Part shown: piece by piece, positions 1,675 through 57,363 of the stretch
Layout: every line of letters begins with the position of its first letter
Numbering within the stretch: position 1 is the first letter of the stretch
From: Escherichia coli
GTDB lineage: Bacteria; Pseudomonadota; Gammaproteobacteria; Enterobacterales; Enterobacteriaceae
Direction: 5' to 3' (one strand)
Assembly (NCBI GenBank): GCA_002099625.1
Contig: GCA_002099625.1_4857.1
Length of the DNA stretch: 64,000 nt
Position numbers and translations under genes: made by a program
Notes under the pieces: generated by a model
What the model saw: only the letters and a program-made list of their open reading frames with translations
What the model was told of the DNA's origin: nothing
Databases searched by the model: none

Positions 1675-1679
1675 TGTTC

Positions 1680-2710: not shown

Positions 2711-2711
2711 T

Positions 2712-23726: not shown

Positions 23727-24530
23727 TTACCAGCTCCTTACACCCATGCCCATTACCCGCAGATTGGACACTTTCGGAGCCAGCTGCAGGTATTCCTGCG
23801 CGAGTTGCTGGAGAGCACCACGACGGGACTCAGTGGCAACAGCGCTGGTCGTTGTCGGATTGTACAGAATGTCTTCCAACACTTGACGACTGATAGGGCG
23901 GTCGACGTAAGTGCGAGTAGATTCCTGTGCCACTTTACTACCGCGTTGAATCGCAGAGTATTTGTTACAGATTTGCAGGCCATCTTCAATAACCCAGTCA
24001 AAGGTGACCAGTTTATCGATGCGGCGTACGATTGTCGTACCCAGACGACCTTCACGAACGATAGCACGCAGTGAGAAACACACGTTCTGATGTGGGTTCT
24101 CTAGTGCTTCCGCCAGAAGCGGACCACGTTCACGGTTAGGTTTAATCCAACCCCAGATTTCCATCACCGGCAGACCGTTACACATCTGGTCGGTCGGCTT
24201 CACTTCTACTTCGCGAATGTGCATACACACGTTACGCGTTTCGATCCATTCGTTACGTTCGATCCACTGGGCTTCGCTCATGCCTTGTTCGTATTGCGGA
24301 TGGTCTTCTTCACCGAAGAGATTCCCCGCTAAAACTTTACGCATGAAAACGTTAGAGCGCTCGAAGACATGTTTTGACTCGTTATAGGCGTAGTAAATAT
24401 TCTCAGAGTTGAAAATATTCAGTGCACCTAACAGGACGTAATAATACCCGTCCGCATCTTTCTTTAGCGTTGCCCCTTTATTGACCCCAGCGAGTGCCAC
24501 GCAGTTATAACGTAGTGACAAGTTTTCCAT
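23727..24530 (-). CDS. Hypothetical protein (267 aa)
   Basis: ORF in same block. Confidence 0.6.
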   Translation of the reverse strand: MENLSLRYNCVALAGVNKGATLKKDADGYYYVLLGALNIFNSENIYYAYNESKHVFERSNVFMRKVLAGNLFGEEDHPQYEQGMSEAQWIERNEWIETRNVCMHIREVEVKPTDQMCNGLPVMEIWGWIKPNRERGPLLAEALENPHQNVCFSLRAIVREGRLGTTIVRRIDKLVTFDWVIEDGLQICNKYSAIQRGSKVAQESTRTYVDRPISRQVLEDILYNPTTTSAVATESRRGALQQLAQEYLQLAPKVSNLRVMGMGVRSW

Positions 24531-24592: not shown

Positions 24593-25321
24593 TTACCTCA
24601 TATACAAATCCTCGAGTGGCTCTGCACGTACCGGATCGACCTGGAGTGCAGAACGGATACCCTGTTTCAGTTCCACATCTGCAATCTTGGCCAACCGGGA
24701 AGTTTTGTTCAATGAACCTGAACGCAGCGGAATAAACTGCACCCGATTCATCAAATCGCTGTCTTTTTTCAGGGTGTAGCGGAAATACGTCCGCGGGTCG
24801 CCAACCTTACGCTGTGTGTGGGCAGCATAACAGTCAGCGGTGATCTGGTCGTTAAAGACCGTAAAGCCGTTCCACGTCTTAGTGTCAGACAATAGCTCAG
24901 CGTCATCTACTGCGGTGTACCAGAAAGGCCGGTTTCCGAAGTCGTAGATGTACGAAGCGATGTTGTAGACTGGCGAGGAGAGCACTTGCAGCATTCGGTT
25001 GGGGAACACCACCGTGCCGGGGTCAAAACGGAACTCGTAATACGGCACACCCTGAACATCAATTTCCTCAAACGCCGACGGGGTAATTTCAATGAACGTC
25101 GTGACGTTCGATACCCCGTAGGTTTTGCGGTCAGTGGAGATAGCGAAAATGCCGACGATTTCGACTTGCGAAGAAATTACCGCCAGCTCTTTAGCCACGA
25201 AGCCAACAGGGATGTAAATGTAACATCCCCCTTTGGTGATGGTGGCCGTGCCTTGGTCCACTAAATCTGCATGAATTTTCGTCGCGTCACGACGTGCTGT
25301 TTCAATGGCGCTCACGACCAC
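24593..25321 (-). CDS. Hypothetical protein (242 aa)
   Basis: ORF in same block. Confidence 0.6.
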   Translation of the reverse strand: MVVSAIETARRDATKIHADLVDQGTATITKGGCYIYIPVGFVAKELAVISSQVEIVGIFAISTDRKTYGVSNVTTFIEITPSAFEEIDVQGVPYYEFRFDPGTVVFPNRMLQVLSSPVYNIASYIYDFGNRPFWYTAVDDAELLSDTKTWNGFTVFNDQITADCYAAHTQRKVGDPRTYFRYTLKKDSDLMNRVQFIPLRSGSLNKTSRLAKIADVELKQGIRSALQVDPVRAEPLEDLYMR

Positions 25322-25330: not shown

Positions 25331-26806
25331 TTAAACTTTGCTCGGTACAGAAATAACCACACCGCCACAAATCCAATCCAGGACGTAGTTAATCATCCAG
25401 TCGGTCGCCACCTCGTCAGGCTGACGGTTAGCAATCATACCACGATGAATATCCAGCATCAGCTTGGACAGTTCGTATTCACCGAAGACCTCAGTCGCGG
25501 AGACCTTGATAACGAACTCAGTGATGTCTGTGGTGTCGGTTGTGAAGAACGAATCGATGAAGCTTGCCGTTGATTTCTTAACGAACTCCGGCGTTGCTAC
25601 CTGACCGTCCTGTCCACGCCAGAACAGTTCAGGATCGGTCGCATCGATAGCCACGTTAAACGCTTGTTTCAGTGACTGGCGATTGCGTGTTACCCAACTG
25701 CTGTCGAGCTTAGCACGCTGAATCGCAGAACGGTGGCCCCAGGCAGCGATGTAGTCTTTCTGTTTTTCCAACAGTGAAGCTACACGCGTGGAGACATTGG
25801 TGTCACCTTCGTCCAGCTGGTAGATAGCGCCCAGTAACGCTTCAACGCTACCACCTTTTTCCAGATAGTCGTCCATCACTTCCTGACAGATATACACTTT
25901 CTTCTCAACGTTGTCGTATCCGAAGACAATGTTACCGGTCTTGATGCGGGTAACGATGTTCTGGGTGTAGGCGTAAACCCAACCGATATAGCTGTAATGC
26001 AATGGCAGCATCTGTGCTTTCCACTGCCCGCTATTCAGACCAGAGTCTTTCCACGGCATTTCCAGGTAGTAGCCAGAAAGCAGCATAAACAGAATGTTGC
26101 GTTTCAGGTTGTGTGGTGCCTGGTCGCTTACCGGAGAGAGCATGTTCCCTTCGAGCATGTTGCGAACGGCTTCGTTGATATTCCAACCCAGCGCATTCAA
26201 CAGTTCTTTAACCAGATCGTCGTAAGCTTTGCTGCCGGTTTCTGGCAGTTCGATATCGGCAGGGACGTTGGCTTTAACTGCAGGGTGCGTAGTACCATTG
26301 CCCAGCGGGTTTTCTACCGAATCAATTAATGCCTGTACCACCGGGGAGTTCAACGCCGGGTCCATACCTGCAGGCACAAGTGCCCATTCTTCGCTAACTG
26401 CCTGGTTTTCAATACCCTGGTTGTTTTGGATAACCAGTTGAACAAACGGCTGAATAACGTTACGGGCAAAGTCAAGCATACCCTGACAACGTTGGATAGC
26501 CATACGTTTCAGTTCGAACAGTGTCGGTTCGTGGTCTTCGACGTTCAGCGTTTCTGGACCCGCTGCAGTATCTGCGATTACAGACGCTTCGCCTGTACCG
26601 GCCTGCGGCGTTTTCAGTGCAGTGATATCCGGCAGAGACTGGAAGAACTCCTCGTCAGTTATCTGTGTATCGAAAACGCTCTGCTGCGTAGTCGCTTTTG
26701 TCAGTAGACCAACAGGACTGTCAACGTCAGCTTCCAAACGAACCCGGTGTTGTTTCGCCAGTTTCATTGCGTTGGTGACAGCATTAAGTGAATATAAGTT
26801 GATCAT
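25331..26806 (-). CDS. Hypothetical protein (491 aa)
   Basis: Long ORF; 4-nt overlap with the upstream 97-aa gene. Confidence 0.65.
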   Translation of the reverse strand: MINLYSLNAVTNAMKLAKQHRVRLEADVDSPVGLLTKATTQQSVFDTQITDEEFFQSLPDITALKTPQAGTGEASVIADTAAGPETLNVEDHEPTLFELKRMAIQRCQGMLDFARNVIQPFVQLVIQNNQGIENQAVSEEWALVPAGMDPALNSPVVQALIDSVENPLGNGTTHPAVKANVPADIELPETGSKAYDDLVKELLNALGWNINEAVRNMLEGNMLSPVSDQAPHNLKRNILFMLLSGYYLEMPWKDSGLNSGQWKAQMLPLHYSYIGWVYAYTQNIVTRIKTGNIVFGYDNVEKKVYICQEVMDDYLEKGGSVEALLGAIYQLDEGDTNVSTRVASLLEKQKDYIAAWGHRSAIQRAKLDSSWVTRNRQSLKQAFNVAIDATDPELFWRGQDGQVATPEFVKKSTASFIDSFFTTDTTDITEFVIKVSATEVFGEYELSKLMLDIHRGMIANRQPDEVATDWMINYVLDWICGGVVISVPSKV

Positions 26807-27096
26807 GCCTGACCCCCGTTTTTGGTGCTGATAGAATCCTGGATGCGACCAGTAATACGCGCACCCACCATATCAGCGATGTCTCGTTTCAGCAAACGCT
26901 GATCGCCCATGCGGTCAGACAGGCCATTGCTGCCCTTCAGCAGTCCGTGAATAATTTCGGTGGCCAATTCAACCGCATTGCCCAGAACAACAAAGTTCAT
27001 GCGTTGCTGTGGGGAATAACCTTCCGTTTCCGGATTCGTGCTATTACGGCCCACCGGAATCCCATGCTGCTGCTTGAGCGTATCTAAAATTCCCAT
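26803..27096 (-). CDS. Hypothetical protein (97 aa)
   Basis: ORF with GGAG ribosome-binding site; preceded by GC hairpin 27121-27139. Confidence 0.5.
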   Translation of the reverse strand: MGILDTLKQQHGIPVGRNSTNPETEGYSPQQRMNFVVLGNAVELATEIIHGLLKGSNGLSDRMGDQRLLKRDIADMVGARITGRIQDSISTKNGGQA

Positions 27097-27120
27097 TATT
27101 AACTCCGGAGTTTATTTACC

Positions 27121-27139
27121 GGGCGGGAGCGACCCGCCC
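27121..27139 (-). other. Intergenic GC hairpin (RNA), no U-tract
   Basis: gggcggg-agcga-cccgccc between the beta-like gene stop (27144) and the next start (27096). Confidence 0.4.
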
Positions 27140-27143
27140 TACA

Positions 27144-30100
27144 TTAGTTGATTTTAGCCGGCAAGGCTGGGACGTCTTCACCATCTAAGATGCGTCCGAT
27201 ATTCTCCCCACCACGATACCCGACAGCGTTGGTGGTTCCGATGCGCATGATAGAACCTACGATACGTGCGTCGACGGAATCACGACCAAAGATAATGTCG
27301 AGTTCCTGCCCGTCTTCCGTTTTGTTGGTTCCATACATCACTTCCTGAACCGTCGTTTTCAGCTGGTTAGCAATAACCATCTTATCCGCTGCTGCCATCT
27401 CTACCCGGTGTGTGATGTAGAATCGGACACACAGGCTATTGTACGCTAACGGCACCCCCTCAACACGAAAATCACCGTTGACTCGACCATCCTTCGGCTC
27501 GTCACGTTTGAGAGCCAGCGCAGTCTTCCGACGTATACGGTCGTATTTACGAACCATCTCCGCCAAAGACGGGGTCATATCTTCCACCTCGCCGTGGTAA
27601 ACCACTTCGATTTTGTCGATAAACCCACGAACACCAGAGCGTGGTGCAAAGGAGCTTAACTCACGCAGCGTTTCCGCTGCTTCTTTACTGAACCCGCTCA
27701 TATCGCCGGTCAGGTTGTCGGTGAAGGTGCATAGAATTGAATCCACGTCTACGTGGTCCCCTTCTTTTACCATCTCCAACAGGTTCTGGGTAAACGTCAT
27801 TGTGACTTCTTTGAGTTTGGTAACATCGGCTTCAGCCTTAGCAGCGAACCGCTCACTAATGGCGTTGGAGTCCTCAATTACTTCTTCCCCTTCAATCAAA
27901 GCGACAGTTGCCAGTATCCCGTTTTTAAAGCTGACTTGCGTTGGATCGTAGATGTCTGGTTCAAAGTGTTGTTCGTTGTACGTGATAACGGCACCGGCAG
28001 GGAGTTTATCTCCGCGCTTCCATTTCGTTACCAGGGTGTGTGGGTAGTAAGTCCCTTCGTGCGGACCGAACCAACGGCCCAGTGGGAAAGCTTCTTCCTC
28101 TCCGTCGTCGTATTTGATTTTAACGTGGTCGTTAAGAACCTCCACAATCTTGCCAGGTTTATCGATTACGCGTGCGTGCTTCACAGAAGTACGGTGTGCC
28201 ACGAACTTTTCTTGCTCGGTACGATACGGTGTGGTGGTTGCGCCAACACAACTGGTCGCAGAACCGAATTGAATCCCAACGAAGTTCTGACGCTTAGCAT
28301 CGTCCATCAGGGTATCCGGCACCAAGCCATCAATAAACGACAGTGCCTCACCTGGCTTCAGTTTATCGAGGTCCTTTTTAAAGGTCGTGCCGTCCACGGT
28401 GTCGTAACGCGGATTGTTTGTTGCAAAGGCGGTGATACCTACATCGCCGTTATCGACCGTGTTACCGGAGACAATCCCCAGGTCGCTCGGTTGGAATTCA
28501 CGGGTACTGTAGACCATGGTCTTGCGGTTACGACCACCTGTACCGCCCATGGTAACAACATCTTTTTCTTTGATGTTCTGTACCGGGTTTGCGCCAGGAG
28601 CCAGCAGAACAGACGGGTCGGAGTTAATTGCACCCCACACCATGTCCTGCGTCAACTCAAACTTACGATTCGAGTTAGGCGCGTTGTTGTAGTTACGCAT
28701 CGCCCGCACCATCGCGGTGTAGATGTGATACGAAATACGTTGGTTCCCGATGAACATCATTTCGTCACCGTTAATTTCCGGTAACGTGTGGTCCGTCTGC
28801 AGCAGTTCGTTAGAACGCTCCAGTAAGCCGATAAAGGTTTCCGGCTCGCCCATTTTCCTGAGGATACGCGCGTGCATGTCGTCAACAAATGCGGTCCGCA
28901 TCAGTTTCAGCTCTTTGATGTAGCGTGGTGTTAGCCCATCTGCATCGCGTAACAGGTTCAGGTAAATGTCTTCCCGGTCAACTTCCGACTCGGTATACGT
29001 GGTAAAATGTTTAATGTAACGGTCTAAGCCGTTGACAATCATCCTCTGTTGATCGTTCTCGCAGACAATTGCAATTTTCGCATCCTGGAGACGAATAATG
29101 GAGTCGAACTGACTTTTATCGATACGTTGTCCGACAGAGAGAACCTCGTAACTGATACCAAAGTGTTTCAACATCCCGGTTAACCCGAGATAGTACGCAA
29201 ACACAAAGCCCAGCGAGATTGATTTGCCCATCAGTGACAGTTCGGTCATTTCACGTGGAGCCTTAGAGGTGTCCACGCCAAAGACTTCGGCGAGCGTACC
29301 CAGTGGTTCGGTCTTATCCTTATCCACTCGATAGAGCTGGGAGTTTTTATCCATACCGACGATGACATGACTCCGCGGTTTCTTCGCCACAGGTACCAGC
29401 TCGACACGGTCCGCGTCTGCCAGTTGCCCTTCGTTAAAGAATGCCGCTTTCTGTTTAATGTCAAAGTTCCATTGGTACCCAATTGCGTTGAACGCTGCTA
29501 CACGACGTGCCACCTCGGTGTACTGACGCGGCAGTTTAGACAGCGGATCGAACACATTCGCCAGTTTTGCATCAGTAATTTCGGTGTTCTTCGGATCGAC
29601 CGCGCGAGTAATAATCGCATTAGTGAGCCAACGTCCGTAATCATTGACGACTTTATCACTGCGACGGACAAAGTTCTTCCCGTAGGCAGTGGTTAACGCT
29701 ACGGTATCGTGGGACACTTTACGGATAGGAAGATCAACACGCTGACGACGCATTGTATATTCCACACCATTTGCAACCCAAGTACCGTCTTCGGTTAATG
29801 CAGGAATTGAAAAACGTACCGTGGTTGGTTCTCCGCCAATCGGCTGAATACGCAACGTGTGGTGTTCGATATTCCCGGTAACGGAAATCTCTTTCTCAAC
29901 AGTGTGATTGTGAATCGCCAAACCGAGACGCTGAGATGACGCTACTGCCCCCAGAATATCTTTCGGGAAGATTTCTTGGTTGTACTGACGAATGATTTGG
30001 TCGGTGGTATTTTCCGCCCAGGCTTCATCCGTAACTAAGCGTTCAATCTTCTTAGGCTCGGCTTTAACTTCGAGTTTCTTCGGATCGATGGTCAGACCTT

Positions 30101-31349
30101 CGCCGTACGTCTCTTTAGGATTGTACGGGTTGGGTAAGTTTACGAAACGTTTAGAAGATTCGTTCAGAAACTGATACGCTTTGGCGGTGACGCGGCCCGC
30201 TTCTGCCAGGCGCTCAACTTCCTGTTTAATCACAGCATCGTGTGGGATGGTGCGTTCTACGACGATGGTGGTTGGTTTGACATCTTCTTTCGGCGCTTCG
30301 ATGACCAGATCTTCTTTCTCATCGAACTCATGATCGTTCAATGTATCGTCAACGTTGTCGCTTTGTGTTGCTTCATCGTCGACGATATCGAGGCTTTCTT
30401 CCGGTTTACTGGCAACGGTTTCAACAGCATCGTCGTCCTCTCCCAGATGTACGCGTTCATCCCCTTCCGGTGTAACGAACTCGTCATCTTCGTAGTCGGT
30501 AGACGGCGGTGTGGTCATCACCGTAGTCAGTGTACGGTAGAACATTCTGCCCATCTGCACGTCAGTCAAACGACCACCGGCAGACTTACGCATTCTTTCA
30601 ATTACACCCATGTTCATGGATGTAAAACCACCGTTGTGTGTGAAGATAAAGTTCACACGAGACAGCTGGTTCATGTCCATACCGTCGAACAGGGTTGCTT
30701 GCTGATCGCCGTAAGCCCAACCGAACAGTTCCAGTAACCACAGCAGGTTAAAGTCTTTAAAGTGTTCCAGTTTGGTTTTAACACGATCGTTATACGTCAT
30801 TTTAAAACGATCAAAAGAAGGCAGTACGTTACCCAGTTCGATGATGTAGTAGTTCTGACGCATGTACTCACGTGAGTCAGTTTTCATCTGGTTAGTTATC
30901 AGCAGCTGAATGTTGTGCAGACGTTCGTACCAGGACATTAAAGTATCTGGGTAGAAATAATGCGGCAGCATCGGAGTGTAGTTTTCGATGAGCAGCACTT
31001 TCGGATCGGAACGTACCACGCCGTCTTCAATCATGCGACGAATACGACGGTTGTTACGATGGTACTGGAAGATTTGGCGCTCTTGACCAACAACCGGTTT
31101 CTTACGCGGGTGGCCAATAATGCCGTCTTCAGGCAGCTGGAAGTGGTGACGAATCATCGCCGGTTTTTCCAGCTGACCAAAACATGGTGTGGTTAACGGT
31201 GGTGCTAAAACCACCTGGTCTAAATCGATGGTGTGGTAGATAGAACCACGTGGGAGCTGGAGCTTCTCCAGCGGGATAATACGCGGACGACCGAACTCAT
31301 CGGTCTTGCGCACGGTAAAGCGCTGGTTAAACTGTTTCAGAAAAATCAT
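27144..31349 (-). CDS. Multisubunit RNA polymerase beta-like subunit (1401 aa)
   Basis: C-terminal region IEGEEVIEDSNAISERF resembles the bacterial beta-subunit active-site segment (NFEDAIxxSE); lies directly downstream of the beta-prime-like gene; assignment from eye-matched motifs only. Confidence 0.5.
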   Translation of the reverse strand: MIFLKQFNQRFTVRKTDEFGRPRIIPLEKLQLPRGSIYHTIDLDQVVLAPPLTTPCFGQLEKPAMIRHHFQLPEDGIIGHPRKKPVVGQERQIFQYHRNNRRIRRMIEDGVVRSDPKVLLIENYTPMLPHYFYPDTLMSWYERLHNIQLLITNQMKTDSREYMRQNYYIIELGNVLPSFDRFKMTYNDRVKTKLEHFKDFNLLWLLELFGWAYGDQQATLFDGMDMNQLSRVNFIFTHNGGFTSMNMGVIERMRKSAGGRLTDVQMGRMFYRTLTTVMTTPPSTDYEDDEFVTPEGDERVHLGEDDDAVETVASKPEESLDIVDDEATQSDNVDDTLNDHEFDEKEDLVIEAPKEDVKPTTIVVERTIPHDAVIKQEVERLAEAGRVTAKAYQFLNESSKRFVNLPNPYNPKETYGEGLTIDPKKLEVKAEPKKIERLVTDEAWAENTTDQIIRQYNQEIFPKDILGAVASSQRLGLAIHNHTVEKEISVTGNIEHHTLRIQPIGGEPTTVRFSIPALTEDGTWVANGVEYTMRRQRVDLPIRKVSHDTVALTTAYGKNFVRRSDKVVNDYGRWLTNAIITRAVDPKNTEITDAKLANVFDPLSKLPRQYTEVARRVAAFNAIGYQWNFDIKQKAAFFNEGQLADADRVELVPVAKKPRSHVIVGMDKNSQLYRVDKDKTEPLGTLAEVFGVDTSKAPREMTELSLMGKSISLGFVFAYYLGLTGMLKHFGISYEVLSVGQRIDKSQFDSIIRLQDAKIAIVCENDQQRMIVNGLDRYIKHFTTYTESEVDREDIYLNLLRDADGLTPRYIKELKLMRTAFVDDMHARILRKMGEPETFIGLLERSNELLQTDHTLPEINGDEMMFIGNQRISYHIYTAMVRAMRNYNNAPNSNRKFELTQDMVWGAINSDPSVLLAPGANPVQNIKEKDVVTMGGTGGRNRKTMVYSTREFQPSDLGIVSGNTVDNGDVGITAFATNNPRYDTVDGTTFKKDLDKLKPGEALSFIDGLVPDTLMDDAKRQNFVGIQFGSATSCVGATTTPYRTEQEKFVAHRTSVKHARVIDKPGKIVEVLNDHVKIKYDDGEEEAFPLGRWFGPHEGTYYPHTLVTKWKRGDKLPAGAVITYNEQHFEPDIYDPTQVSFKNGILATVALIEGEEVIEDSNAISERFAAKAEADVTKLKEVTMTFTQNLLEMVKEGDHVDVDSILCTFTDNLTGDMSGFSKEAAETLRELSSFAPRSGVRGFIDKIEVVYHGEVEDMTPSLAEMVRKYDRIRRKTALALKRDEPKDGRVNGDFRVEGVPLAYNSLCVRFYITHRVEMAAADKMVIANQLKTTVQEVMYGTNKTEDGQELDIIFGRDSVDARIVGSIMRIGTTNAVGYRGGENIGRILDGEDVPALPAKIN

Positions 31350-31367
31350 ACATGTGCCTTATGGGTA

Positions 31368-32981
31368 TCATTTCAACAGCGCAGCAGTCGTTCTTTTAAT
31401 CACGTTGTTAACCGGATTGATTTTGAAACTGCCGTCTGTTGCAAACCAGTAGTTTTTCGAACTGACCCACTTCCGATTTTCCTCGAGCGCTTCGGTTGAC
31501 ATCGGGCAGTTTGCTGAGCCGGTGTCACCATCGTAGTCACCACCCAAGCCCCCTAATCGGGATGGGTGTGGTGCCATGGATTCCACAAAGGTTTTCACGG
31601 TACGGTCAGGGAAACTAATTGCACCCTTCTCTTTTAACGTGACCCAATCGTCTTCCAGTTCATGCAAATAGAGGGAAGAAGTGGTGGTCTCCAATCTTAT
31701 GGTCGAGGAGTAAGTCGAACCGCGTCCCGTAACCGGATAACGCGTGATGAACGAGAAGTAGTCATTCCAAATATCGTAACCTGACAAATAGAGGAGTTCC
31801 GCTAAGCTCAGTCCGCGGACAAGCTTACGGTCACGTCCTTCCGGCAGGTCTTCAATATCGTAAAAGATTTTGAAGCTGCGTTTGTCCTGGTAGATTAATG
31901 CCACGTAATGGTCCGGATCAATCATCAGCGGTTTATGTCGAAGCTCGCGCGCTTCCATTCTGTTGATGAGTGTTTCGATGCCATCGTCGGTAGTGAAAAG
32001 GTCATACACCCGCCCGGAGACTTCCAGGAACTCACGCTTGAGTGTTTTGGTGTTAACGCCGTATAAGTTGCCGTCCCCTGCCCGGATGTTACTGAGGTAA
32101 CGTTCACGGATGTGGTATTGAGCCACAGGCAGTAATGCCTTCAGGGTTTGGTACAAACCGATACGGGTATCCGTTGGACGAATCGCATCTTCGCGACCCA
32201 TGACCTTGGAACCGGTTGAGAATGAAGACAGTACGTTACGCGTACCGTTCATTAACTTACGTGACGTCACTTTACGACGTGCAAAACCACCTTTACCGTC
32301 TTGGATGTTGAAGAAGTACATCCAGATATCATTAAAGGTTTGTTGGAGCTTCCAGCGAACCGGGTCAGTCAGTTCCGTTCGCGTACTGCGGTCGGGGATT
32401 GCACGTGCCAGAGAAATCAGACGGCGGTAGAGTCCGCCAATCTCTTCTTCTTGGTCGCGGCCATCCTGACGAATGACCAAATCACGTAATCCCGCAGGCA
32501 GAACCAGCACATAGCGGCTGAGACTGACCGGACGGAACTTATTGAAGAAATCGACTGTCTCGTCGCGACGCATCGATTCGTTGCGTCCCGGTGTCAGTTG
32601 TTCGTAGTAGCGTAGGAAGAAGTTGAAGCCGGTGTCTGCACCTTTATCACTGGGCAGAGCCGGCTCGAAGTCTTTTTCTTTCTCATTCCAGATAGCGAAT
32701 CGCTTCCCGGAACAGATTTCTTCGTACAGCTGTTTCAGCTGGAACAATGCCAAACAAACGGTCGGCGAAATGATATCCAGTTTGATATCAATGTACGAGA
32801 ACGTTGAGTCTCGTGCTTCGCTCCCTGTGAGGCCAAAAATTTCGGTTGAATACAGTCCTTCAGGGTGAAAGTTTTTCGTCAGTCCCTGAAAGGTGTCTGT
32901 TGTTGTAACTGGTTTTAAATGCGACACCAGGGACTTGTTGACGTTTAACAAGTAAAAGTCAACCCAGTTTAGCTTTCTCAC
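31368..32981 (-). CDS. Multisubunit RNA polymerase beta-prime N-terminal-like subunit (537 aa)
   Basis: GGDYDGDTG about 465 residues in, matching the position of the beta-prime catalytic NADFDGD motif; N-terminal PEGLYSTEIFG resembles beta-prime RDGLFCARIFGP; GTG start with AGGAG ribosome-binding site. Confidence 0.6.
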   Translation of the reverse strand: MRKLNWVDFYLLNVNKSLVSHLKPVTTTDTFQGLTKNFHPEGLYSTEIFGLTGSEARDSTFSYIDIKLDIISPTVCLALFQLKQLYEEICSGKRFAIWNEKEKDFEPALPSDKGADTGFNFFLRYYEQLTPGRNESMRRDETVDFFNKFRPVSLSRYVLVLPAGLRDLVIRQDGRDQEEEIGGLYRRLISLARAIPDRSTRTELTDPVRWKLQQTFNDIWMYFFNIQDGKGGFARRKVTSRKLMNGTRNVLSSFSTGSKVMGREDAIRPTDTRIGLYQTLKALLPVAQYHIRERYLSNIRAGDGNLYGVNTKTLKREFLEVSGRVYDLFTTDDGIETLINRMEARELRHKPLMIDPDHYVALIYQDKRSFKIFYDIEDLPEGRDRKLVRGLSLAELLYLSGYDIWNDYFSFITRYPVTGRGSTYSSTIRLETTTSSLYLHELEDDWVTLKEKGAISFPDRTVKTFVESMAPHPSRLGGLGGDYDGDTGSANCPMSTEALEENRKWVSSKNYWFATDGSFKINPVNNVIKRTTAALLK

Positions 32982-33010
32982 TTTTAAGCTCCTGAATTGG
33001 AAGAAACATT

Positions 33011-36000
33011 ATGGCAAAAAGAGGCAAAGACGGTTTCGATGATATCGATTTAGATAGACTCGACGACTGGGATGATTTCGGTGAACCACCCCGTCCCAAA
33101 GACGAGAAAAAACGAAGCCCGATACTCAGTACCCTGAATGTTGCCAGGAAGTCGGCGTTGTCAACTATCTGGCCAGAAGGGAAACGCGACCAAGTTATCC
33201 TCAAGGGGATGCCTAAGCCGGCAGCTGATGCATACGAGGGCTATCAGTCAGCGGCAGCTGCAGCAAAGGACATTTACGCCCATACGAAAGGGGAGCTTGA
33301 GAAGACCGAGCGCACGCTGAAGATGCAAGCGCGTCAACTCGGTCCGACAATGAAGAAATACTTGCCGGATGCAGTTACTAAACGCTTCGACAAGTGGTCA
33401 AAATCTGACCAGTTAGATTACCAGAACTACGATCCGAATCAGGCATTGATGGATCGTGAACTGGGCGACGTATTCTCAGGTGTGCCAAAGGACGCCGATG
33501 AGCAACGTCAGCTGCAGGATCGCATGGTAGAGGACAAGCTCCGTGACAGCATCAAAGAGATGCGCGCGGATGCAATGCACCAAACCATGATTGGGATGGC
33601 GAAAGATATTAACCTGTTAACCGGGTTAAGCCGTGGGGTATTCTTAAACATCGAGCGTAAGAAGCTCGAATTGCAATACCGCACCCTGTTCGCCATTCAA
33701 GACATCGTGAAGATGAAGCAGTCGGAGTTCGATCGTAACACGCCTGCTTTAGAAGCCATCGTGAAGAACACGGCACTGCCGGATTACGCGAAGGAAGATT
33801 TCTCAGAAGTCCGTTGGGCGAACGTTAAACGCCAGGCTGCGGAATGGATGAACCCGTTGCGTTATGCTGACGGGTTTATGGACATGATTCGCGAAAATAC
33901 CAAGAAGAAAATTTCTGGTATATTTGGCGAAGGTCGTGGTTTGTTAGAGTCCGTTCTCGGCATGGGTGTTGAAGACGATTTCGGCATGAGCGATAGCTCT
34001 TCGTTGACTGCCGAACGTCGCAAAACAAATGCTCGCGATAAAGCAACTGCATGGGGTAGCGGATTCCTTGCGAAGAAACTACTCGGCCCACAAATCGAGA
34101 AACTCCAGAAATGGACTCGTGAGGAGATGGAGAAAAATCCAGAGGTCATGAAACGCCTGCAGAAGGGCGCGTTCACCTTTGGTAATCTTTCCTCTATCTC
34201 GAACTCAGCTATCGCAGGCGAAACGCAAGGACCGTTGGCGGATTTGTTCCGGGTATTGAATGAACTCGGTATTGTCCAACCGTTAAACCGCGAGAAAGCT
34301 TTTCTTGATGAGCGTAATGGCGAAACGTTAAGCCGTTCGGCGAAGTTTGACCGCAAAGCGTATCTTAGCATAGTTGAAGTTATTCCTGCCTGGCTGGCAG
34401 AGATTAACAAATCTGTTCGTCGTGGCTATGGCGAACATGCCGACCTGGAATATGACATCACCAGCCGTGGTTTCGTAGACCGCAAAGTGGTCGGTAATCG
34501 TGTACGAAAAGCGGTTGCAAATGATGAGCAGCGTCTGCGTCTTCAGAATTCCATTAATAGCACTGTGGATTTTGTTGACCGCGGCAAAACACTCTCGCAG
34601 AAGGATCGTCAGCATCTTGCCGACTATATTGAGTCGCGTGCCTCGCAGGGCCGTGCATTCGACGTAGAAGCAATTTTGAAAGACCCGATGCATCTTCATC
34701 GGTATATGCCAGGAAACTCTGCAGAACGCATTAAGGAAGCGTTACAGGGGCATTCTGATAGCCTGGTCGGTGGTAGCAACGAATTAAGTAACGAACTGGC
34801 TCGCAAAATCTCCACAGTGCAGTCATCTATCACCCAACGTCAGGCAATTATCGACGAGGCGGTGAATATTTACGGCGAGCGAGCGTTGCGTGATGCGGGT
34901 ATCTTTAACTACGACGCGAAGAGTGACACCTTCGGCGTGGATAAAGACCTGTCCGATCCCTATACCTTGTTTAATGACTTGGCGATGGGTAAGACACGCA
35001 GCGGGCGTGCATTGACTCGTGACCAGGAGATTCAACGTAAGCTGCAAAATGGTTCGGCGTTAGGCGACTATCTGCGCCGAATGAACCAAGGGGCAAGTGG
35101 TGGTGCCGATGACACGTCGTTACCGCCGGCTTTACGTGGCGGTGGTAAAGGCCGCGGAATGTCGCCTCGGCAGCTAGCCGCGGTTCTCTACGGTGAAACC
35201 TCGACTAACTTTGTTGAATTGTTGAGTCAACGTAACCGTGGCGAAGAAGCGCCACGGAATAACTTTGACGGTATCATCGAAGCGATTCGGGGTAACAACA
35301 ACAGTGACACCCTCCAGAAAATTCTGGAACACGTCAGAAGCATGGACGAAGAAGGGGTTCTCCTGGCTTCGTTAGCAGGGGGTGCTGGTTCTGGCGATGA
35401 AGAAATGGGCCCGCCTCGCCCTGGCGGTGGTAGCGGTGGCGGTAAACGCCGTCGTATTATCATCGGTGAGGATGGGCTTATTCGTCGTTGGGGTGGTGTG
35501 TTGTTCGACACCGCAACAGGAATCGGCGGCTTTGCAAAACGTGGTGTTAAGGGTGCCTGGAATAAACTGAACCAGTTCGGTGGCTGGGCACGCGGTAAAG
35601 TCGCAGGAATGGGTGGCGGAGAAGGTCCTGGTTTCTTAACCCGGATGCGTGGCCTTATTAGTGGTAGTGTCCGTGGGGGCTTTGAAGCAGTAAGCTCTTT
35701 CGGTAAAGGACTACTGGGTATCCGCGACATTTACGATGACCACGGTAATGTTGTTCTGCAGGGCGCACGCCTGGAAGCTGGGGAATACTACCAGGTTATT
35801 GATGGTAAGATGGTTCAGTTGAAAACACTGGACGACATCAAGCTGGGGAGCGACATTGTTGACTCCGCAGGTAATCTGGTATTAGCGGCCGCTGACTTAG
35901 CCGCTGCGGGTAAACTCCGCTACTATAAAGGCGGGAAAATCCAAGCACTGACCCAAGGTCTGGCCAGTAAGATTGGTTTAGGCTTTAATAAGGTGGCTAA

Positions 36001-39000
36001 GCTACCGAAAAGGTTCCTGGATTTCCTGTCACCAAAAGCGGGCAGCATCGTTGGTAAGATTAAGGACTGGCTGAACGAGATTCCGGAAGGCGAAGAAAAG
36101 ACACGTCTCCAGAAAGCGTTCAACCGTGTAACGAGCTTACCGGGTAAAGTGCTCGGTTTTGCGAAACGTGGTGTCGATCGTCTGAAAGACATGATTACCG
36201 ACAACCCACTGACGCGTTGGTGGAAAGGCCGTAAAGATGGTGGGGGTGGTGGTTTCAGTCTCTTCTCATCAACCGGCAAGAAAACCAACCACATCCTTAT
36301 CCGTATCTATAAACTGTTGAACCAACGTTTACCGGGAGATCCGGAAGACGAAAGTTGGACAGAGGAAATGGAGAAGGGCGTCGGGGGTGGCGGTAGTACG
36401 ATCGGTCGTGCAGTACGCGGGGCGTATGATCGTGCGAAAGCGTCATTGTCTGAACGTTTTGGTGGACGTTGGTCAAGAACAAAAGCGTTCTTTGGTCGTG
36501 GACGTGACCGCCTGCGTGGTTGGTTCAGTGGTTTCCGAGGCCGGGCTGGGGATATGCTCGATGGATATCGTGGAGCACGACACGACATTGCTACACGTTA
36601 CGAAGTTGAACGTCGGTTGGCTGGACGCGATGACGATGTTGCTGAGTTTTATCGCAGCCATTTGAACGCGAAAGGTGGCCTTTCTGGCCGTAAAGTCTAC
36701 GGCGATGCGAAGGAAGACCTTGAGACCGCACGTGATGCAGCAGGGAGGGTTATTAACAAAGGGAAGAATGCTGCCAAGTCTGCAGGTGCAAGGTTATTCG
36801 AACGCTTGGACCGAATGATTGGCTTGCAAGAGATGTCGTGGTTTAACACCATGCGCGAATCAGTATCCCGTGCAGGTGGTGACGATGGCATTATTCGCAC
36901 CATGTTTGCGAAGTTCGGTAAACGTAACAAGCCGCCTGAAGGTGATGAAAAACGCGACTACTTTAACTTCTTCAAACGTTGGCGTGAGAAACGTAAGGAG
37001 AAGAAAGAGAAAGCGCAGGGCTCCAAAGGGAAATCTGGCGGTCTGTGGGATATGGTGAAAGGCTTACCTATCATCGGCCCCATCGTCAGTATCTTGGGAA
37101 CTGTGGGTAATATACTCGGTTCTATCACGAAATGGGGGGTGTTAAAACCCGTAGGTCTTTTAGGTAAGGCTGCGTGGAACGTTGGTAAGTTCGCAGTAAC
37201 CCGTTTGGCGGCACCCGCGGTGTCCGCTGTGGCAACTGCGGCATCTGCCGTCGTGACAGCAGTGGGCTGGCCGGCAATTCTTATCGGTGGCGCGATCGCT
37301 GCGGCAGGTTACGCCGCGTACAAGATCGCAACGACTACCTATACCCAGTACCTGGATAAGATGCGTTTAGCTCAGTACGGTTTCCGTGATTACGATAAGT
37401 GGTCGTCGGACGACGGGGCGAAGGCGCGTTACTTAGAAGACGCATTGCGTGAGTATGTGTCTTACGCGGAAGATGGCCAAGCCAGTCTCCGCGGACTAAG
37501 TGGAAAAGACGTTCAGAAGTTAGCTGAAGGGTTCGGTATCAACGTTGAGGAAAAAGGCGAGATGTTGGCCTTCCAAGCGTTTATGCTTCAGCGCTTCATT
37601 CCGATTTATCTCCGCTGGATTACGGCACTGAAATCGATGCCGAACAGTATCCAGTTGGCTGACGTCGGCGATGCGAAGAAAGTATCGAAAGAGGACATGC
37701 AGACACTCTTCAACAAAATGAAGATGACTAAGGATGCAAAAGCGTTCTCTTCGTTAACTGACCCACGCAAAGTCAACCAAGGTTTCTTCTCGAAAGCTTG
37801 GGACGTTGTAACCTTTACACCGAAGGAGTTTTTGAGCGGTGAAGAGGTTATGGAAGTGCAGAATGAAGTTGAGCGTGCAATCAAGTTCAGAATGGACGAT
37901 AAGAAAGCACGTAAGTACGGAATGGCACCGGCTGTAGAGGGGATTAAGTCCGCGGGCGTTGATGAAGCTATCAACAAACTTGGACAGTTGGATAACGAAC
38001 GTAATAAAAATCTGGCGAAGGTAGAGGGTTGGGAAGACGGAACAGAGCAGGTTCAGATTCAGGTAGACTGGAATGCGGTGCTCGACCAGAAAGACATGAA
38101 TGCGATGGAGTCGGTACGTTGGAAGACTTATGGTTTTACCACCATCGACAACGCCACACGCACGTTGATTACGGTATTCGAGAAAAACGTCATCAAAGAC
38201 ATTGACGTGAAAACCGCAAGCTACAAAGGTGATTGGAAGAAAGCAATCGCCTCAATGGTTCCAGACGCTATCGGCACACCGAAAGAAGATCGTTTGAAGC
38301 GGTGGTTCTTTGACCGTTTCTTACCGGTATTCATGACGTACTTGGTTGGGGTGAAACGCTACCTGCCAACAGCTGATCCGCTGAACTTGAAACTGACCGG
38401 CGGTTACCTGTACGAAATCAGTTTGATGATGTCAACAGCTTATAGCTTGAAGGGCGGTATAAGACAGTCGGTGTGGGAAGTGAATATCAACCCATTAGGG
38501 GGCGATGCTAACACTAATCCGTCGTCTATCAAAGCCGAGCTGGAAACGCTGAAGCTGTTATCAAAAGAAGCTGACCTTGCCGTGCGTAACATGATTAAAG
38601 CCATTAAAAATAATGGCAAGCGTGCACGCTGGAAGGATCGTAACAAGAACCGCAGTTCTCTGGAAGTCACCGGTGAAGATGAAGAAGACTCGAACATCAG
38701 TTCGGGAGATTCTTTGTCATCTGACGGTGCTCGCGCCTCAGGCTACATTCCATCGGGCACGAGTGGCGGTGTGCCGGGTAACTTAGGTCAAGTCGTCGAT
38801 GCGGTTGGTGGTGTGCGGAACTACGCTGCAATGACCACTGGTTCGTCGTCGATTAACCTGAGTGATGTGAAAGACGGTGATTATAAGTCACTGGCTGAAA
38901 AATACCCGATAGAAATGTTGGGTAGAAAGGGTGCGTTGAACGTTCCGAATATCAAAGCATTGATTACCGATGCAGCGAACATGATGGGCGTGCCACCTGC

Positions 39001-40132
39001 AGTGGCGTTAGCAATGGCTAAGGCGGAGTCCGGATTTAACTACACCGCTAAAAACCCGTATGCTTCGGCGTCTGGGTTGTTCCAGTTTGTTAACGGCACG
39101 TGGGACGGGATGATGAAGGGGTATTCGCGGAAGTTTGGTATTCCGCGTGTTAACCAAATGGACCCGTGGGCGAATGCTATACTGGGTGTACAGTTCATTC
39201 GTGACAACATCCAACAAGCACAACGTGACCTGGGTGGTAAAGCACCACCTCCAGCCGTGGCTTATCTGTACCACTTCCTAGGTGCAGGCGGCGGTAAGAA
39301 ATTCCTGGAAGCGTGGAAGCGTAATCCGAATATGGCGGCATCGAGTGCTCCTGGGATTACATCCGCAATATTGAGAGGGAATGCCAACGTCTTCTACAGC
39401 AACGGTCGTATACGTAGCGTAGATGGGGTTATTCAGGAACTGAACCGCCGCATGGGTGCAATTTCCGCCAACGAAGTCGCTGCCGATCCGAGCAAGACGA
39501 AGGATATGGTTGCAGGATTGTCGCCTAATTCACCAACCAACCCGGCAGCGGCAATGGGTGCACCGGCCGCTAATGACCCGAGTCTGTCGCCAGCAGATAA
39601 CCTGCCAGCAGATAATGCTAATCGTCGTGATGACGCATTGACGCAGAAAGGGGCCATGGCGGCACAAGATGCAATGGCTACCGCCGCAGGTAATGTAGGA
39701 CCAGCAGCACCTACACCAACCACAGGCGGTACCGGAACATCCGATGCCTCAACAACGGCCGAAACCGTAGCGTCGCAAGCTGCAGCAGAAGGATTGTCTG
39801 CGACGGATGTTGCTAAAGTGAAAGCAGGCGCGGAAGCGCAGGTTAACGCAGCAGCTCGTCCAGTTGCCGCTCCAACTTCTGATGCTACAGCATCGACGCC
39901 AACGCTGAATGGTGACCCGATAGATGTTCAGCAGCTCAAGGTACTGATTCAGTCTCGCGATTACTTGAAAGAGATTCGTGATATTTTGAAATCAAATCCA
40001 AGAGCGGCAAACGACACACGGGGTGGTAGTATCCAGCAAGCGGCAAATGTGCCTCCTCCTGGCTCAGCTGCACGTAGGCAGGAAATAACCCAACCGACAC
40101 CGTCGTTAAACGTAAGTCGGAAAGCAAGCTAA
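33011..40132 (+). CDS. Giant virion protein (2373 aa) with TM segments and a lytic transglycosylase domain
   Basis: Lytic transglycosylase motif AKAESGFNYTAKNPYASASGLFQFVNGTW (about nt 39000-39130); hydrophobic cluster around nt 37060-37340; Gly/Arg-rich repeats; Ala/Pro/Thr-rich C-terminus; architecture like phiKZ gp181 or T7 gp16. Confidence 0.8.
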   Translation: MAKRGKDGFDDIDLDRLDDWDDFGEPPRPKDEKKRSPILSTLNVARKSALSTIWPEGKRDQVILKGMPKPAADAYEGYQSAAAAAKDIYAHTKGELEKTERTLKMQARQLGPTMKKYLPDAVTKRFDKWSKSDQLDYQNYDPNQALMDRELGDVFSGVPKDADEQRQLQDRMVEDKLRDSIKEMRADAMHQTMIGMAKDINLLTGLSRGVFLNIERKKLELQYRTLFAIQDIVKMKQSEFDRNTPALEAIVKNTALPDYAKEDFSEVRWANVKRQAAEWMNPLRYADGFMDMIRENTKKKISGIFGEGRGLLESVLGMGVEDDFGMSDSSSLTAERRKTNARDKATAWGSGFLAKKLLGPQIEKLQKWTREEMEKNPEVMKRLQKGAFTFGNLSSISNSAIAGETQGPLADLFRVLNELGIVQPLNREKAFLDERNGETLSRSAKFDRKAYLSIVEVIPAWLAEINKSVRRGYGEHADLEYDITSRGFVDRKVVGNRVRKAVANDEQRLRLQNSINSTVDFVDRGKTLSQKDRQHLADYIESRASQGRAFDVEAILKDPMHLHRYMPGNSAERIKEALQGHSDSLVGGSNELSNELARKISTVQSSITQRQAIIDEAVNIYGERALRDAGIFNYDAKSDTFGVDKDLSDPYTLFNDLAMGKTRSGRALTRDQEIQRKLQNGSALGDYLRRMNQGASGGADDTSLPPALRGGGKGRGMSPRQLAAVLYGETSTNFVELLSQRNRGEEAPRNNFDGIIEAIRGNNNSDTLQKILEHVRSMDEEGVLLASLAGGAGSGDEEMGPPRPGGGSGGGKRRRIIIGEDGLIRRWGGVLFDTATGIGGFAKRGVKGAWNKLNQFGGWARGKVAGMGGGEGPGFLTRMRGLISGSVRGGFEAVSSFGKGLLGIRDIYDDHGNVVLQGARLEAGEYYQVIDGKMVQLKTLDDIKLGSDIVDSAGNLVLAAADLAAAGKLRYYKGGKIQALTQGLASKIGLGFNKVAKLPKRFLDFLSPKAGSIVGKIKDWLNEIPEGEEKTRLQKAFNRVTSLPGKVLGFAKRGVDRLKDMITDNPLTRWWKGRKDGGGGGFSLFSSTGKKTNHILIRIYKLLNQRLPGDPEDESWTEEMEKGVGGGGSTIGRAVRGAYDRAKASLSERFGGRWSRTKAFFGRGRDRLRGWFSGFRGRAGDMLDGYRGARHDIATRYEVERRLAGRDDDVAEFYRSHLNAKGGLSGRKVYGDAKEDLETARDAAGRVINKGKNAAKSAGARLFERLDRMIGLQEMSWFNTMRESVSRAGGDDGIIRTMFAKFGKRNKPPEGDEKRDYFNFFKRWREKRKEKKEKAQGSKGKSGGLWDMVKGLPIIGPIVSILGTVGNILGSITKWGVLKPVGLLGKAAWNVGKFAVTRLAAPAVSAVATAASAVVTAVGWPAILIGGAIAAAGYAAYKIATTTYTQYLDKMRLAQYGFRDYDKWSSDDGAKARYLEDALREYVSYAEDGQASLRGLSGKDVQKLAEGFGINVEEKGEMLAFQAFMLQRFIPIYLRWITALKSMPNSIQLADVGDAKKVSKEDMQTLFNKMKMTKDAKAFSSLTDPRKVNQGFFSKAWDVVTFTPKEFLSGEEVMEVQNEVERAIKFRMDDKKARKYGMAPAVEGIKSAGVDEAINKLGQLDNERNKNLAKVEGWEDGTEQVQIQVDWNAVLDQKDMNAMESVRWKTYGFTTIDNATRTLITVFEKNVIKDIDVKTASYKGDWKKAIASMVPDAIGTPKEDRLKRWFFDRFLPVFMTYLVGVKRYLPTADPLNLKLTGGYLYEISLMMSTAYSLKGGIRQSVWEVNINPLGGDANTNPSSIKAELETLKLLSKEADLAVRNMIKAIKNNGKRARWKDRNKNRSSLEVTGEDEEDSNISSGDSLSSDGARASGYIPSGTSGGVPGNLGQVVDAVGGVRNYAAMTTGSSSINLSDVKDGDYKSLAEKYPIEMLGRKGALNVPNIKALITDAANMMGVPPAVALAMAKAESGFNYTAKNPYASASGLFQFVNGTWDGMMKGYSRKFGIPRVNQMDPWANAILGVQFIRDNIQQAQRDLGGKAPPPAVAYLYHFLGAGGGKKFLEAWKRNPNMAASSAPGITSAILRGNANVFYSNGRIRSVDGVIQELNRRMGAISANEVAADPSKTKDMVAGLSPNSPTNPAAAMGAPAANDPSLSPADNLPADNANRRDDALTQKGAMAAQDAMATAAGNVGPAAPTPTTGGTGTSDASTTAETVASQAAAEGLSATDVAKVKAGAEAQVNAAARPVAAPTSDATASTPTLNGDPIDVQQLKVLIQSRDYLKEIRDILKSNPRAANDTRGGSIQQAANVPPPGSAARRQEITQPTPSLNVSRKAS

Positions 40133-55869: not shown

Positions 55870-57363
55870 TTATTTCTTCTTAGTCAAGAACTTAGGTTCC
55901 AGACCATCCACGGCCATCGCCAGTAATGACATTGCTGTTAAGCAACGCTTACCACCTTTGACTTCCTGATCCTTGAACATCCAGTATTCCACTGTATTGT
56001 CCAGAATTTCATTCCAGTCCCACTTTTCGTCGATAACTTTATAAAGCTCCGCCGGTGAGAGATGGTACTTCATTTCCAGTCGGTGGTAGTTATTCTGCAT
56101 GTACGCTAGTGCGGCGGTGATTTCCAACGCACGGCGCAAACGCGGGTTGCTGTCACACATGTCGCGAATCGTGGTACGCATGAAAGATGTACCAGGTAGC
56201 AAATCGAGGGTATAGTTAGCACCACTACGTTTGTAGCCCCATTCATCTTTCAGTGTGTCGCTCAGGTAATGCCACAGAGAGAGGTGATAAAGCAGACCCA
56301 TCTCCTGCGAGAAGACCATTTTGAACTTAACGCCTGTGTGACCACCCTTCGCACGGTACTGCGTGAAAACAATTTCTTTCAGGTCGTTCACCGAAGCATT
56401 CATTGCTTTCGAACGCGCAGTCGGGTATTTCTCTTCGTTTACACCGGTCTTCGCGTTGTAAGTCTGATCCTGCTTCAACTCACCAGACTTGGTTGCAACC
56501 AGCAGGGAGTTAGTTAAGAACGACAACTGACGGCGCGGGATACCCGCAAACTTCAGATCATCGCCTGCATCGTCCAACAGTTTACCGTTCGCCTTCGGTC
56601 CACCACGGCCACCTGCCGCCATTGCTTTACCCGCATCGTCGGCCAACTGAGCAACGAAGCCCATATAGAAACCACCACGCGCAAACGCAGACGGCCAACG
56701 GCTCATCATGTTCGATTTCTGCAGCGCATCGTGGGCGTTCAGGATGTTCTGTTCAGAATCACCGACCTCTGATTTGGCGTGTTTCTCTTCCAGGGAAGAG
56801 GTGTGCCATTCGGACAGGGAGTCAATCGAGTACAACCACGGGTCGAGAATCTTTTTCGCAGAGCGACGGATTGGGTCCGGGAACGGTGTTTCACGTGCCT
56901 TACCAGCCATATACTCTTTGAAACGTTTTTCGACTTCGTCACGGATATAAGCAGAGTAATACTCCTCACCCGCCATGATATCCGAGCCAACCATGTTGTA
57001 ACGACCTTCGTGGATCAGGTCCAGCACGCCGCCTGTTGGCGATACTTCTAATCCGTTTGCTTTCGCTGCGGAAATGTACCCCGTTTCCAGACGACTTAAT
57101 GCTGCCGTAACTTCGGTATCGTATTTCGATCCCCAGGCTGCATTATAACGTTGCAGAATCATGAAAATACAGAAGTCCAATAAGGTAGACTTAAAGGTAT
57201 TACCACGACCTGCGAAGCCCATGATGTGGGCAAAACCACCGTTGAGGTAGTACAAACCATCTTCCCCGCGCTCGTAGTTACCGAGAGCGTGGTCCATGAT
57301 GGTATATACGTTAAAACGAGGGCGAATCACTTCACCCATGACTTGTTTAGCTGGACCTGCCAT
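55870..57363 (-). CDS. Hypothetical protein (497 aa), degenerate P-loop-like segment
   Basis: Codon usage suggests high expression; GFAGRGNTFKST is one residue off a canonical Walker A, so no function is assigned. Confidence 0.6.
   Translation of the reverse strand: MAGPAKQVMGEVIRPRFNVYTIMDHALGNYERGEDGLYYLNGGFAHIMGFAGRGNTFKSTLLDFCIFMILQRYNAAWGSKYDTEVTAALSRLETGYISAAKANGLEVSPTGGVLDLIHEGRYNMVGSDIMAGEEYYSAYIRDEVEKRFKEYMAGKARETPFPDPIRRSAKKILDPWLYSIDSLSEWHTSSLEEKHAKSEVGDSEQNILNAHDALQKSNMMSRWPSAFARGGFYMGFVAQLADDAGKAMAAGGRGGPKANGKLLDDAGDDLKFAGIPRRQLSFLTNSLLVATKSGELKQDQTYNAKTGVNEEKYPTARSKAMNASVNDLKEIVFTQYRAKGGHTGVKFKMVFSQEMGLLYHLSLWHYLSDTLKDEWGYKRSGANYTLDLLPGTSFMRTTIRDMCDSNPRLRRALEITAALAYMQNNYHRLEMKYHLSPAELYKVIDEKWDWNEILDNTVEYWMFKDQEVKGGKRCLTAMSLLAMAVDGLEPKFLTKKK

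Follow-up and report, generated by a model that had tools for sequence, protein, structure and literature searches.

Probable subunit genes of a virion-packaged RNA polymerase beside a giant tail protein gene in an SPN3US-like jumbo phage

Phages of the phiKZ type transcribe their early genes without the host RNA polymerase (RNAP), by means of an enzyme that is injected into the cell together with the phage genome. This virion RNA polymerase (vRNAP) is not known to include any homologue of alpha or omega, and its beta and beta' subunits are encoded in pieces. In phage SPN3US, Thomas et al. (2016, PMC5105663) identified gp240 as the N-terminal piece of beta' (beta'N), gp241 as betaN, gp218 as betaC and gp42 as the middle piece of beta' (beta'M), and proposed gp244 as beta'C. 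All five subunits were found by mass spectrometry in SPN3US heads, and gene 241 is essential, with particles of the amber mutant 241(am11) lacking every vRNAP subunit (same work). In phiKZ, gp180 carries the motif DFDGD, and co-precipitation links it to gp178, gp80 and gp149. Each virion contains about 10 copies of gp180, which is packaged and delivered into the cell according to Western blot and an mCherry fusion. The loss of phiKZ gp178 disturbs capsid assembly. Liquid chromatography with tandem mass spectrometry likewise detected five vRNAP subunits in Goslar virions, including gp205, gp207 and gp210. The split of beta' after its catalytic barrel is common to the vRNAP, to the non-virion RNA polymerase (nvRNAP) of these phages, and to cyanobacteria (review by Sokolova et al. 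2020). Here, we analyze positions 27144-40132 of a 64,000-nucleotide stretch (the window) of contig GCA_002099625.1_4857.1, deposited as Escherichia coli, and conclude that this region almost certainly holds the genes of two vRNAP subunits, out of the five that make up this multisubunit enzyme, of an SPN3US-like jumbo phage, next to the gene of a giant tail protein.

When positions 27144-33000 were compared with phage genomes by megablast, full-length matches were obtained, with 99.1% DNA identity to the Salmonella phages SPLA3 and the SPFM series and 97.8% to SPN3US, plus weaker matches to Erwinia phage relatives. According to these matches, the window derives from an SPN3US-like Salmonella jumbo phage of the genus Seoulvirus, within the phiKZ-related group. 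A preliminary description of the locus, made from its letters, had reported three open reading frames (ORFs) of 537, 1401 and 2373 aa, and these were reproduced exactly in the ORF list with translations. They correspond one-to-one to SPN3US_0240, SPN3US_0241 and SPN3US_0239, respectively, and we refer to their products as gp240, gp241 and gp239; more broadly, SPN3US_0239 to 0245 and 0218 have gene-for-gene counterparts in the window. The head-to-head position of the 537-aa and 2373-aa proteins, also part of that description, holds too, as the genes of gp240 and gp239 point away from each other, their start codons separated by 29 bp (32982-33010). The genes of gp240 and gp241 are spaced by 18 bp. 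The identity of these genes with those of SPN3US, the homology of their products to beta' and beta at the level of profile and fold, the conservation of their catalytic residues, and their synteny with known systems are directly supported by the data presented here.

The 537-aa protein, gp240, had been singled out for carrying DYDGD at the position of the NADFDGD motif of beta', and its family bears this out: the motif aligns to NADFDGD of the plastid beta' and, in an alignment of 33 homologues with 37-90% identity, residues D482, D484, G485 and D486 are invariant. Moreover, no other D[FY]DGD is encoded in any of the six frames of the window. Among the PHROGs, gp240 belongs to phrog_2986, an RNA polymerase subunit family (E=2.9e-238). 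Profile searches and an AlphaFold model had been suggested as checks of this assignment, and both point to beta'. The profile built from the 33 homologues retrieved from the PDB, as its first and clearly significant match, the beta'N subunit of the AR9 nvRNAP (7s01_d, E=5e-12), followed by plastid beta' (E=2.8e-10) and E. coli beta' (E=1.7e-7), with bacterial and plastid beta' overall at 1e-10 to 1e-7 and the split beta' of plastids and cyanobacteria at about 1e-10. The alignment to beta' is collinear, running through the LRP/lid region and then the catalytic region, and it pairs DYDGD with the SGDYDGD of the AR9 subunit. The AlphaFold2 model of gp240 has a mean predicted local distance difference test score (pLDDT) of 81.2 and, when searched against the PDB with Foldseek, returned beta' chains only (3e-16 to 1e-11, probability 1.00). 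Again, 7s01_d ranked first (3e-16), ahead of plastid RpoC1, cyanobacterial gamma, and the beta' of E. coli and other bacteria (1e-13 to 1e-11), with identities to cellular beta' of about 12-14% in the fold alignments. In the predicted structure, the loop that holds DYDGD is flanked by strands 469-471 and 487-491, which belong to a beta segment of six strands (409-491); the pLDDT around the motif is about 64, and the motif appears to sit at the place of the beta' catalytic barrel. In public annotation, this protein is usually labelled 'beta', though it is beta'-like.

The 1401-aa protein, gp241, belongs to phrog_3148, also an RNA polymerase subunit family (E=0), and tblastn with it found homologues in 316 jumbo-phage records, with full-length ones across the phiKZ-related phages. 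It had been called beta-like in view of the segment IEDSNAISERF, and a profile built from 18 homologues confirmed this relationship with a significant match to the beta subunit of Thermus thermophilus (1iw7_C, E=2.2e-8). Four stretches of gp241 and beta are collinear in this alignment: 508-523 with 118-133, 907-971 with 395-460, 983-1110 with 530-653, and 1297-1353 with 822-880. Within them, GGTGGR is aligned with GPGGL of the fork loop, MDDAKR with HDDANR of the DD pair (the region of D675 in E. coli), and DKxVxANQLKT with GDKLANRHGNKG, which carries the lysines of the second barrel, and residues G936, G939, R940, D1016, K1019, R1020, K1323, Q1329 and K1331 are invariant in the 18 homologues, with D1322 nearly so. 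The segment IEDSNAISERF itself (residues 1158-1168) is outside the hidden Markov model alignment and lies between the blocks aligned to beta 530-653 and 822-880; its residues E1159, D1160 and S1161 are invariant in the same 18 homologues. We take it to be the equivalent of ...NFEDSILVSER... in E. coli beta (E813/D814). On the strength of these alignments, the beta-like body of gp241 can be regarded as a homologue of beta.

Several results weigh against this assignment. The Pfam scan of the window gave no match for gp240 or for gp241, while RNA_pol_Rpb1_1 is touched by 5 of the 33 gp240 homologues, not including the protein of the window, and Rpb2_6 is touched, weakly, by only 1 of the 18 gp241 homologues. 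In single-sequence phmmer searches against the PDB, gp241 gave only noise and gp240 gave sub-threshold matches to beta' (best E=0.39), in which GLGGDYDGD was aligned with the GFNADFDGD of the plastid beta'. As these single-sequence searches are not significant, the homology of both proteins is visible only at the profile or fold level. The TM-scores of gp240 to beta' are modest (0.32-0.40) and do not prove the same domain arrangement; a modest TM-score is expected of an isolated subunit with multiple domains. Finally, our PDB searches brought up no solved structure of a vRNAP.

The neighbour of the polymerase genes, gp239, had been described as a protein with transmembrane helices and a lytic transglycosylase domain. 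Both features were recovered, in the form of two hydrophobic Gly/Ala-rich segments, called by a Kyte-Doolittle 19-residue mean of at least 1.6, and of a C-terminal SLT domain matching Pfam PF01464 with E=2.1e-9 (37.4 bits, for a gathering cut-off of 21.3) and phrog_4067 'transglycosylase' with E=2e-29. The SLT sequence reads ...AMAKAESGFNY...GLFQF..., matching the catalytic-Glu E-S motif of family-1 lytic transglycosylases. Both the hydrophobic and the SLT regions are covered by the alignment to the phiKZ-type gp181, at 24% identity. The database label of gp239, which also counts against our interpretation, is 'tail fibre' and not tape measure: GenBank names it 'putative tail fibre protein', and its best PHROG is phrog_3201, 'tail fiber protein' (E=0). 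Even so, we find it improbable that this protein is a tail fibre instead of a tape-measure or cell-puncturing protein. The central Gly/Ala-rich hydrophobic segments followed by a C-terminal SLT domain are found in many tape-measure proteins; there is a weak match to the tape-measure family phrog_1533 (E=7e-4); and the Pfam scan of gp239 showed no receptor-binding or fibre domain. In addition, the SPN3US gp239 is named the tail tape measure protein, absent from tailless particles (Thomas et al. 2016, PMC5105663; Ali et al. 2017), and phiKZ gp181 has been published as a muralytic virion protein that is part of the cell-puncturing device. As a tail protein of this kind, gp239 would measure or occupy the tail tube, and its C-terminal SLT domain would cut peptidoglycan during tail penetration. 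The preliminary description had the polymerase and the giant lysin co-packaged in the virion, which is imprecise, because the polymerase subunits of SPN3US are head (ejection) proteins whereas gp239 is a protein of the tail.

A different question is whether gp240 and gp241 still work as a polymerase. They might descend from a polymerase but have lost catalysis, serving in the head or in ejection with only a structural role, as could be proposed from their extreme divergence (the identity to cellular beta' given above), from the empty Pfam scans, and from the capsid assembly defect caused by the loss of phiKZ gp178, which means that a structural role does exist. However, the three catalytic aspartates, the ED and DD pairs of beta and the DK...K lysines do not vary even among homologues with as little as 25-37% identity, a pattern expected only under selection for catalysis, and phages of the phiKZ type transcribe their early genes with the injected enzyme and without host RNAP, all of which makes this proposal very unlikely. 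Scarcely conceivable is that both genes encode subunits of the nvRNAP, the enzyme of the late genes and the phage nucleus, since, even though both enzymes consist of split beta/beta' homologues and gp240 finds its best match among solved structures in a subunit of the AR9 nvRNAP (in a PDB where no vRNAP turned up), SPN3US has separate polymerase genes, such as SPN3US_0034 and 0035 at 29-33 kb, its gp240 and gp241 are found in heads by mass spectrometry and are lost together in 241(am11), the phiKZ orthologues gp180 and gp178 belong to the vRNAP, and the genes lie within a virion-morphogenesis module beside prohead protease and tail genes.

Considering gp240 and gp241 as vRNAP subunits, a mechanism may be drawn in which gp240 would be the N-terminal third of beta', ending just past the catalytic barrel and holding the catalytic Mg2+ with aspartates D482, D484 and D486, whereas gp241 would be the N-terminal ~80% of beta, carrying the fork-loop, DD, ED and DK...K active-site elements and preceded by a phage-specific domain of ~285 residues and an acidic linker. 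Both would join gp42, gp244 and gp218 in a core devoid of alpha and omega. From the work on SPN3US, phiKZ and Goslar, this enzyme would be synthesized during the middle or late phase of the infection, assembled before or during prohead assembly, packaged in the head at roughly ten copies, and ejected with the DNA, after which it would transcribe the early genes without the polymerase of the host. For the proteins of the window, the location in the virion, the essentiality, and the role in early transcription would follow by analogy with these relatives.

The N-terminal domain of gp241 (residues 1-285) is the one part of the locus without an explanation in the existing knowledge. The structure model of gp241 covers residues 1-480 and predicts, for residues 1-285, a compact alpha/beta domain with pLDDT mostly above 90, followed by a linker with pLDDT <50 at residues 288-339, in a region (270-360) made up of 34% Asp+Glu. 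No structural relative was found for the modelled residues 1-285. The profile of this domain recovered 1049 protein clusters, and it occupies the extreme N-terminal position in the ~150 best matches listed. To our knowledge, the vRNAP has no sigma-like subunit. It is conceivable, although we hold it only tentatively, that the domain is a dedicated module for a need absent in cellular polymerases, such as prohead docking, passage through the tail, or specificity for early promoters, and the evidence gathered here does not separate these three roles. Along these lines, Thomas et al. (2016, PMC5105663) noted that the N-terminal ~400 residues of gp241 have no homology to beta, and proposed that they target the complex to the head.

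Two of the remaining vRNAP subunits have counterparts in the window (Table 1). The candidate beta'-C gene is the counterpart of SPN3US gp244 and its product is 31% identical to its positional equivalent of the phiKZ type; in Goslar its counterpart is gp210, which is counted among the vRNAP subunits. The beta-C protein has the same length as SPN3US_0218. The beta'-M subunit (gp42) was also searched for in the window, with no match (best E=1.6); its gene is located at 39.4-40.7 kb of SPN3US, outside the window.

Table 1. Position, strand and supporting basis of the features of the polymerase and tail module and of its neighbourhood (window coordinates).
Feature	Position	Strand	Basis
Probable vRNAP beta-N subunit, 1401 aa	27144-31349	-	SPN3US gp241 counterpart, phiKZ gp178 orthologue, uninterrupted
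gp241 N-terminal domain, residues 1-285	30495-31349	-	non-homologous to cellular beta
gp241 acidic, predicted-disordered linker, about residues 286-355	30285-30494	-	pLDDT and composition
IEDSNAISERF, gp241 residues 1158-1168, putative beta active-site 'ED' segment (E1159, D1160)	27846-27878	-	conservation and position
Probable vRNAP beta'-N subunit, 537 aa, GTG start	31368-32981	-	SPN3US gp240 counterpart, phiKZ gp180 orthologue, uninterrupted
DYDGD, predicted catalytic Mg-binding motif, gp240 residues 482-486	31524-31538	-	alignment to beta' and conservation
Giant tail protein, 2373 aa	33011-40132	+	SPN3US gp239 counterpart, phiKZ gp181 orthologue
Two hydrophobic Gly/Ala-rich segments, gp239 residues 1351-1372 and 1399-1433	37061-37309	+	Kyte-Doolittle
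SLT lytic transglycosylase domain, gp239 residues 1984-2072	38960-39226	+	PF01464 E=2.1e-9
gp242 counterpart, 97 aa	26803-27096	-	phrog_8223
gp243 counterpart, 491 aa	25331-26806	-	phrog_3841
Candidate vRNAP beta'-C, SPN3US gp244 counterpart, phiKZ gp176 orthologue	24593-25321	-	SPN3US_0244; phrog_2926 'virion structural protein'
Prohead maturation protease, gp245-like	23727-24530	-	phrog_3014
Probable vRNAP beta-C, SPN3US gp218 counterpart, 222 aa	54884-55552	-	phrog_3233 'RNA polymerase beta subunit' E=9e-94
UvsX-like recombinase	55870-57363	-	phrog_97; adjoins region with the beta-C subunit gene

Regarding the signals around these genes, the 29-bp spacer between the divergent genes ends in ...CATTATG, with TATG overlapping the ATG start of gp239. 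With such a spacer, the promoter of gp240 or gp239 must lie inside the coding sequence of the other gene, or else be extremely short. A scan of 26700-33600 for sigma-70 promoters and intrinsic terminators gave no excess over shuffled sequence, in keeping with a phage independent of the host RNAP. A perfect GC-rich hairpin (GGGCGGG-TCGCT-CCCGCCC, 27121-27139, minus strand) is located 4 nt past the stop codon of gp241 and before gp242, and was overlooked by the terminator scan because it has no T-run; in Goslar, a putative terminator is annotated at the equivalent place, after gp207. The gp242-like and gp243-like ORFs, neither of which has a Pfam match, stand between the beta-N and beta'-C genes, where ORFs of similar size are also present in the phiKZ-like phage used for comparison below and in Goslar.

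Outside this module, the window contains a tRNA cluster on the minus strand (1443-3094) with tRNA-Asn(GTT) and tRNA-Trp(CCA), and two weaker tRNA-like matches (1529-1600 and 1603-1672) without an ARAGORN call. The public labels of the genes of 27144-40132 are inconsistent, and include 'beta subunit 4/5', 'beta subunit 2', 'DNA-directed RNA polymerase alpha chain', 'RNA polymerase III large subunit' and 'hypothetical protein'. A protein identical to the 537-aa gp240 is found in 583 indexed blocks of public assemblies, in many cases on contigs of ~232-240 kb, and some of these assemblies were deposited as Salmonella enterica isolates. The presence of this protein in assemblies of bacterial isolates means that complete phage genomes of the SPN3US type travel with, or contaminate, the sequencing of isolates.

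The closest described system is SPN3US itself, which has the same genes in the same order and orientation and differs from the window only by strain-level substitutions. The 537-aa and 1401-aa proteins have identical lengths in both, and the 2373 aa of gp239 compare with the 7119 nt of SPN3US_0239. Thomas et al. give gp240 a length of 519 aa; by contrast, the ORF that has a conserved N-terminus and a good ribosome-binding site, AGGAG, located 7 nt upstream of its GTG start, encodes 537 aa. The orthologues in phiKZ have the same divergent arrangement, with identities of 33% (gp180), about 33% (gp178) and 24% (gp181), and the phiKZ-type module continues, as in the window, with genes of the gp177, gp176 and gp175 types. 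The catalytic motif marks a difference, as that of the phiKZ type has a Phe (DFDGD) where gp240 has a Tyr (DYDGD). In Goslar, the same module is found in the same order, with gp204, gp205 and gp207; gp205, gp207 and gp210 are three of its five virion vRNAP subunits. The gene order common to the window, a phiKZ-like phage and Goslar comprises the giant tail protein, divergent from beta'N, followed by betaN, two ORFs, beta'C and the prohead protease, and in these three genomes the divergent spacer measures 29, 75 and 152 bp, respectively. This agrees with the preliminary description, which regarded the arrangement as typical of phiKZ-like jumbo phages. Its further suggestion that the subunit boundaries may be unusual was rejected after the comparison with SPN3US, the phiKZ-like phage and Goslar: both proteins are one-to-one counterparts of SPN3US gp240 and gp241 and orthologues of phiKZ gp180 and gp178, with the canonical split.

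What does distinguish these systems is the presence of interruptions in the polymerase genes. In the phiKZ-like phage (locus L003, 7847-10942), the annotated beta'N ORF ends in ...LGAD, and it is followed by an ORF for an HNH endonuclease and then by an exon starting with FDGDT.... In Goslar (locus L004, 8283-11973), the beta'N ORF reads on past ...LGGD, the point where its homology to gp240 stops, and a group I intron and an ORF179-like gene are annotated between beta'N exon 1 and betaN. Since in both phages a short exon starting with FDGDT... is located 1.4-2 kb downstream of beta'N exon 1, their beta'N is interrupted inside the catalytic motif. The genes of gp240 and gp241 touch in the window because this intron/HNH insert is absent.

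The lengths of the gp241 homologues point in the same direction. Among 148 of the best matches that were examined (proteins P0162-P0309), out of 1049 clusters, 33 are full length (1340-1600 aa), whereas 51 have 950-1200 aa, many of them ending in ...DD, which corresponds to D1015-D1016 of gp241, and 55 have 500-700 aa, many ending in ...RKQRGD, that is, R534-D539. The position of D1015-D1016 is also the intron site of PhiPA3 gp210. This distribution suggests two recurrent intron or split sites in the betaN homologues, some of the short entries being perhaps contig fragments. In the window, all three sites, one in beta'N (D482|Y483) and two in betaN (D539|L540 and D1016|A1017), are uninterrupted, and an Rfam scan of the window found no group I intron, which excludes hidden introns in the polymerase genes at the gathering threshold.

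The genes, their split pattern, the virion location and the muralytic tail neighbour were already described for SPN3US between 2011 and 2016, and earlier for phiKZ. The arrangement is correctly recognized but ordinary for phages related to SPN3US and phiKZ, and by itself the finding adds little. The importance lies in the vRNAP system, a minimal polymerase of five pieces without alpha, which is packed in a capsid, passed through a tail, and able to restart transcription in the host, making the infection independent of the host RNAP. With their uninterrupted alleles and the available genetic system, phages of the SPN3US type lend themselves to studies of vRNAP structure, of the role of the orphan N-terminal domain of gp241, and of the competition of introns and homing endonucleases at catalytic sites.

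Beyond the vRNAPs, the best solved-structure match of gp240 by both profile and fold is the beta'N subunit of the AR9 nvRNAP (PDB 7S00/7S01, chain d), which shares the DYDGD form of the motif but belongs to a non-virion enzyme, is shorter (426-448 residues), and has 13-14% identity to gp240 in the fold alignment. Among cellular enzymes, the cyanobacterial gamma subunit and the plastid RpoC1 derive from a beta' split at the same place as gp240, just past the catalytic barrel. However, these cyanobacterial and plastid enzymes are cellular polymerases working with alpha, omega and sigma, whereas in the phage enzyme beta' comes in three pieces and beta in two.

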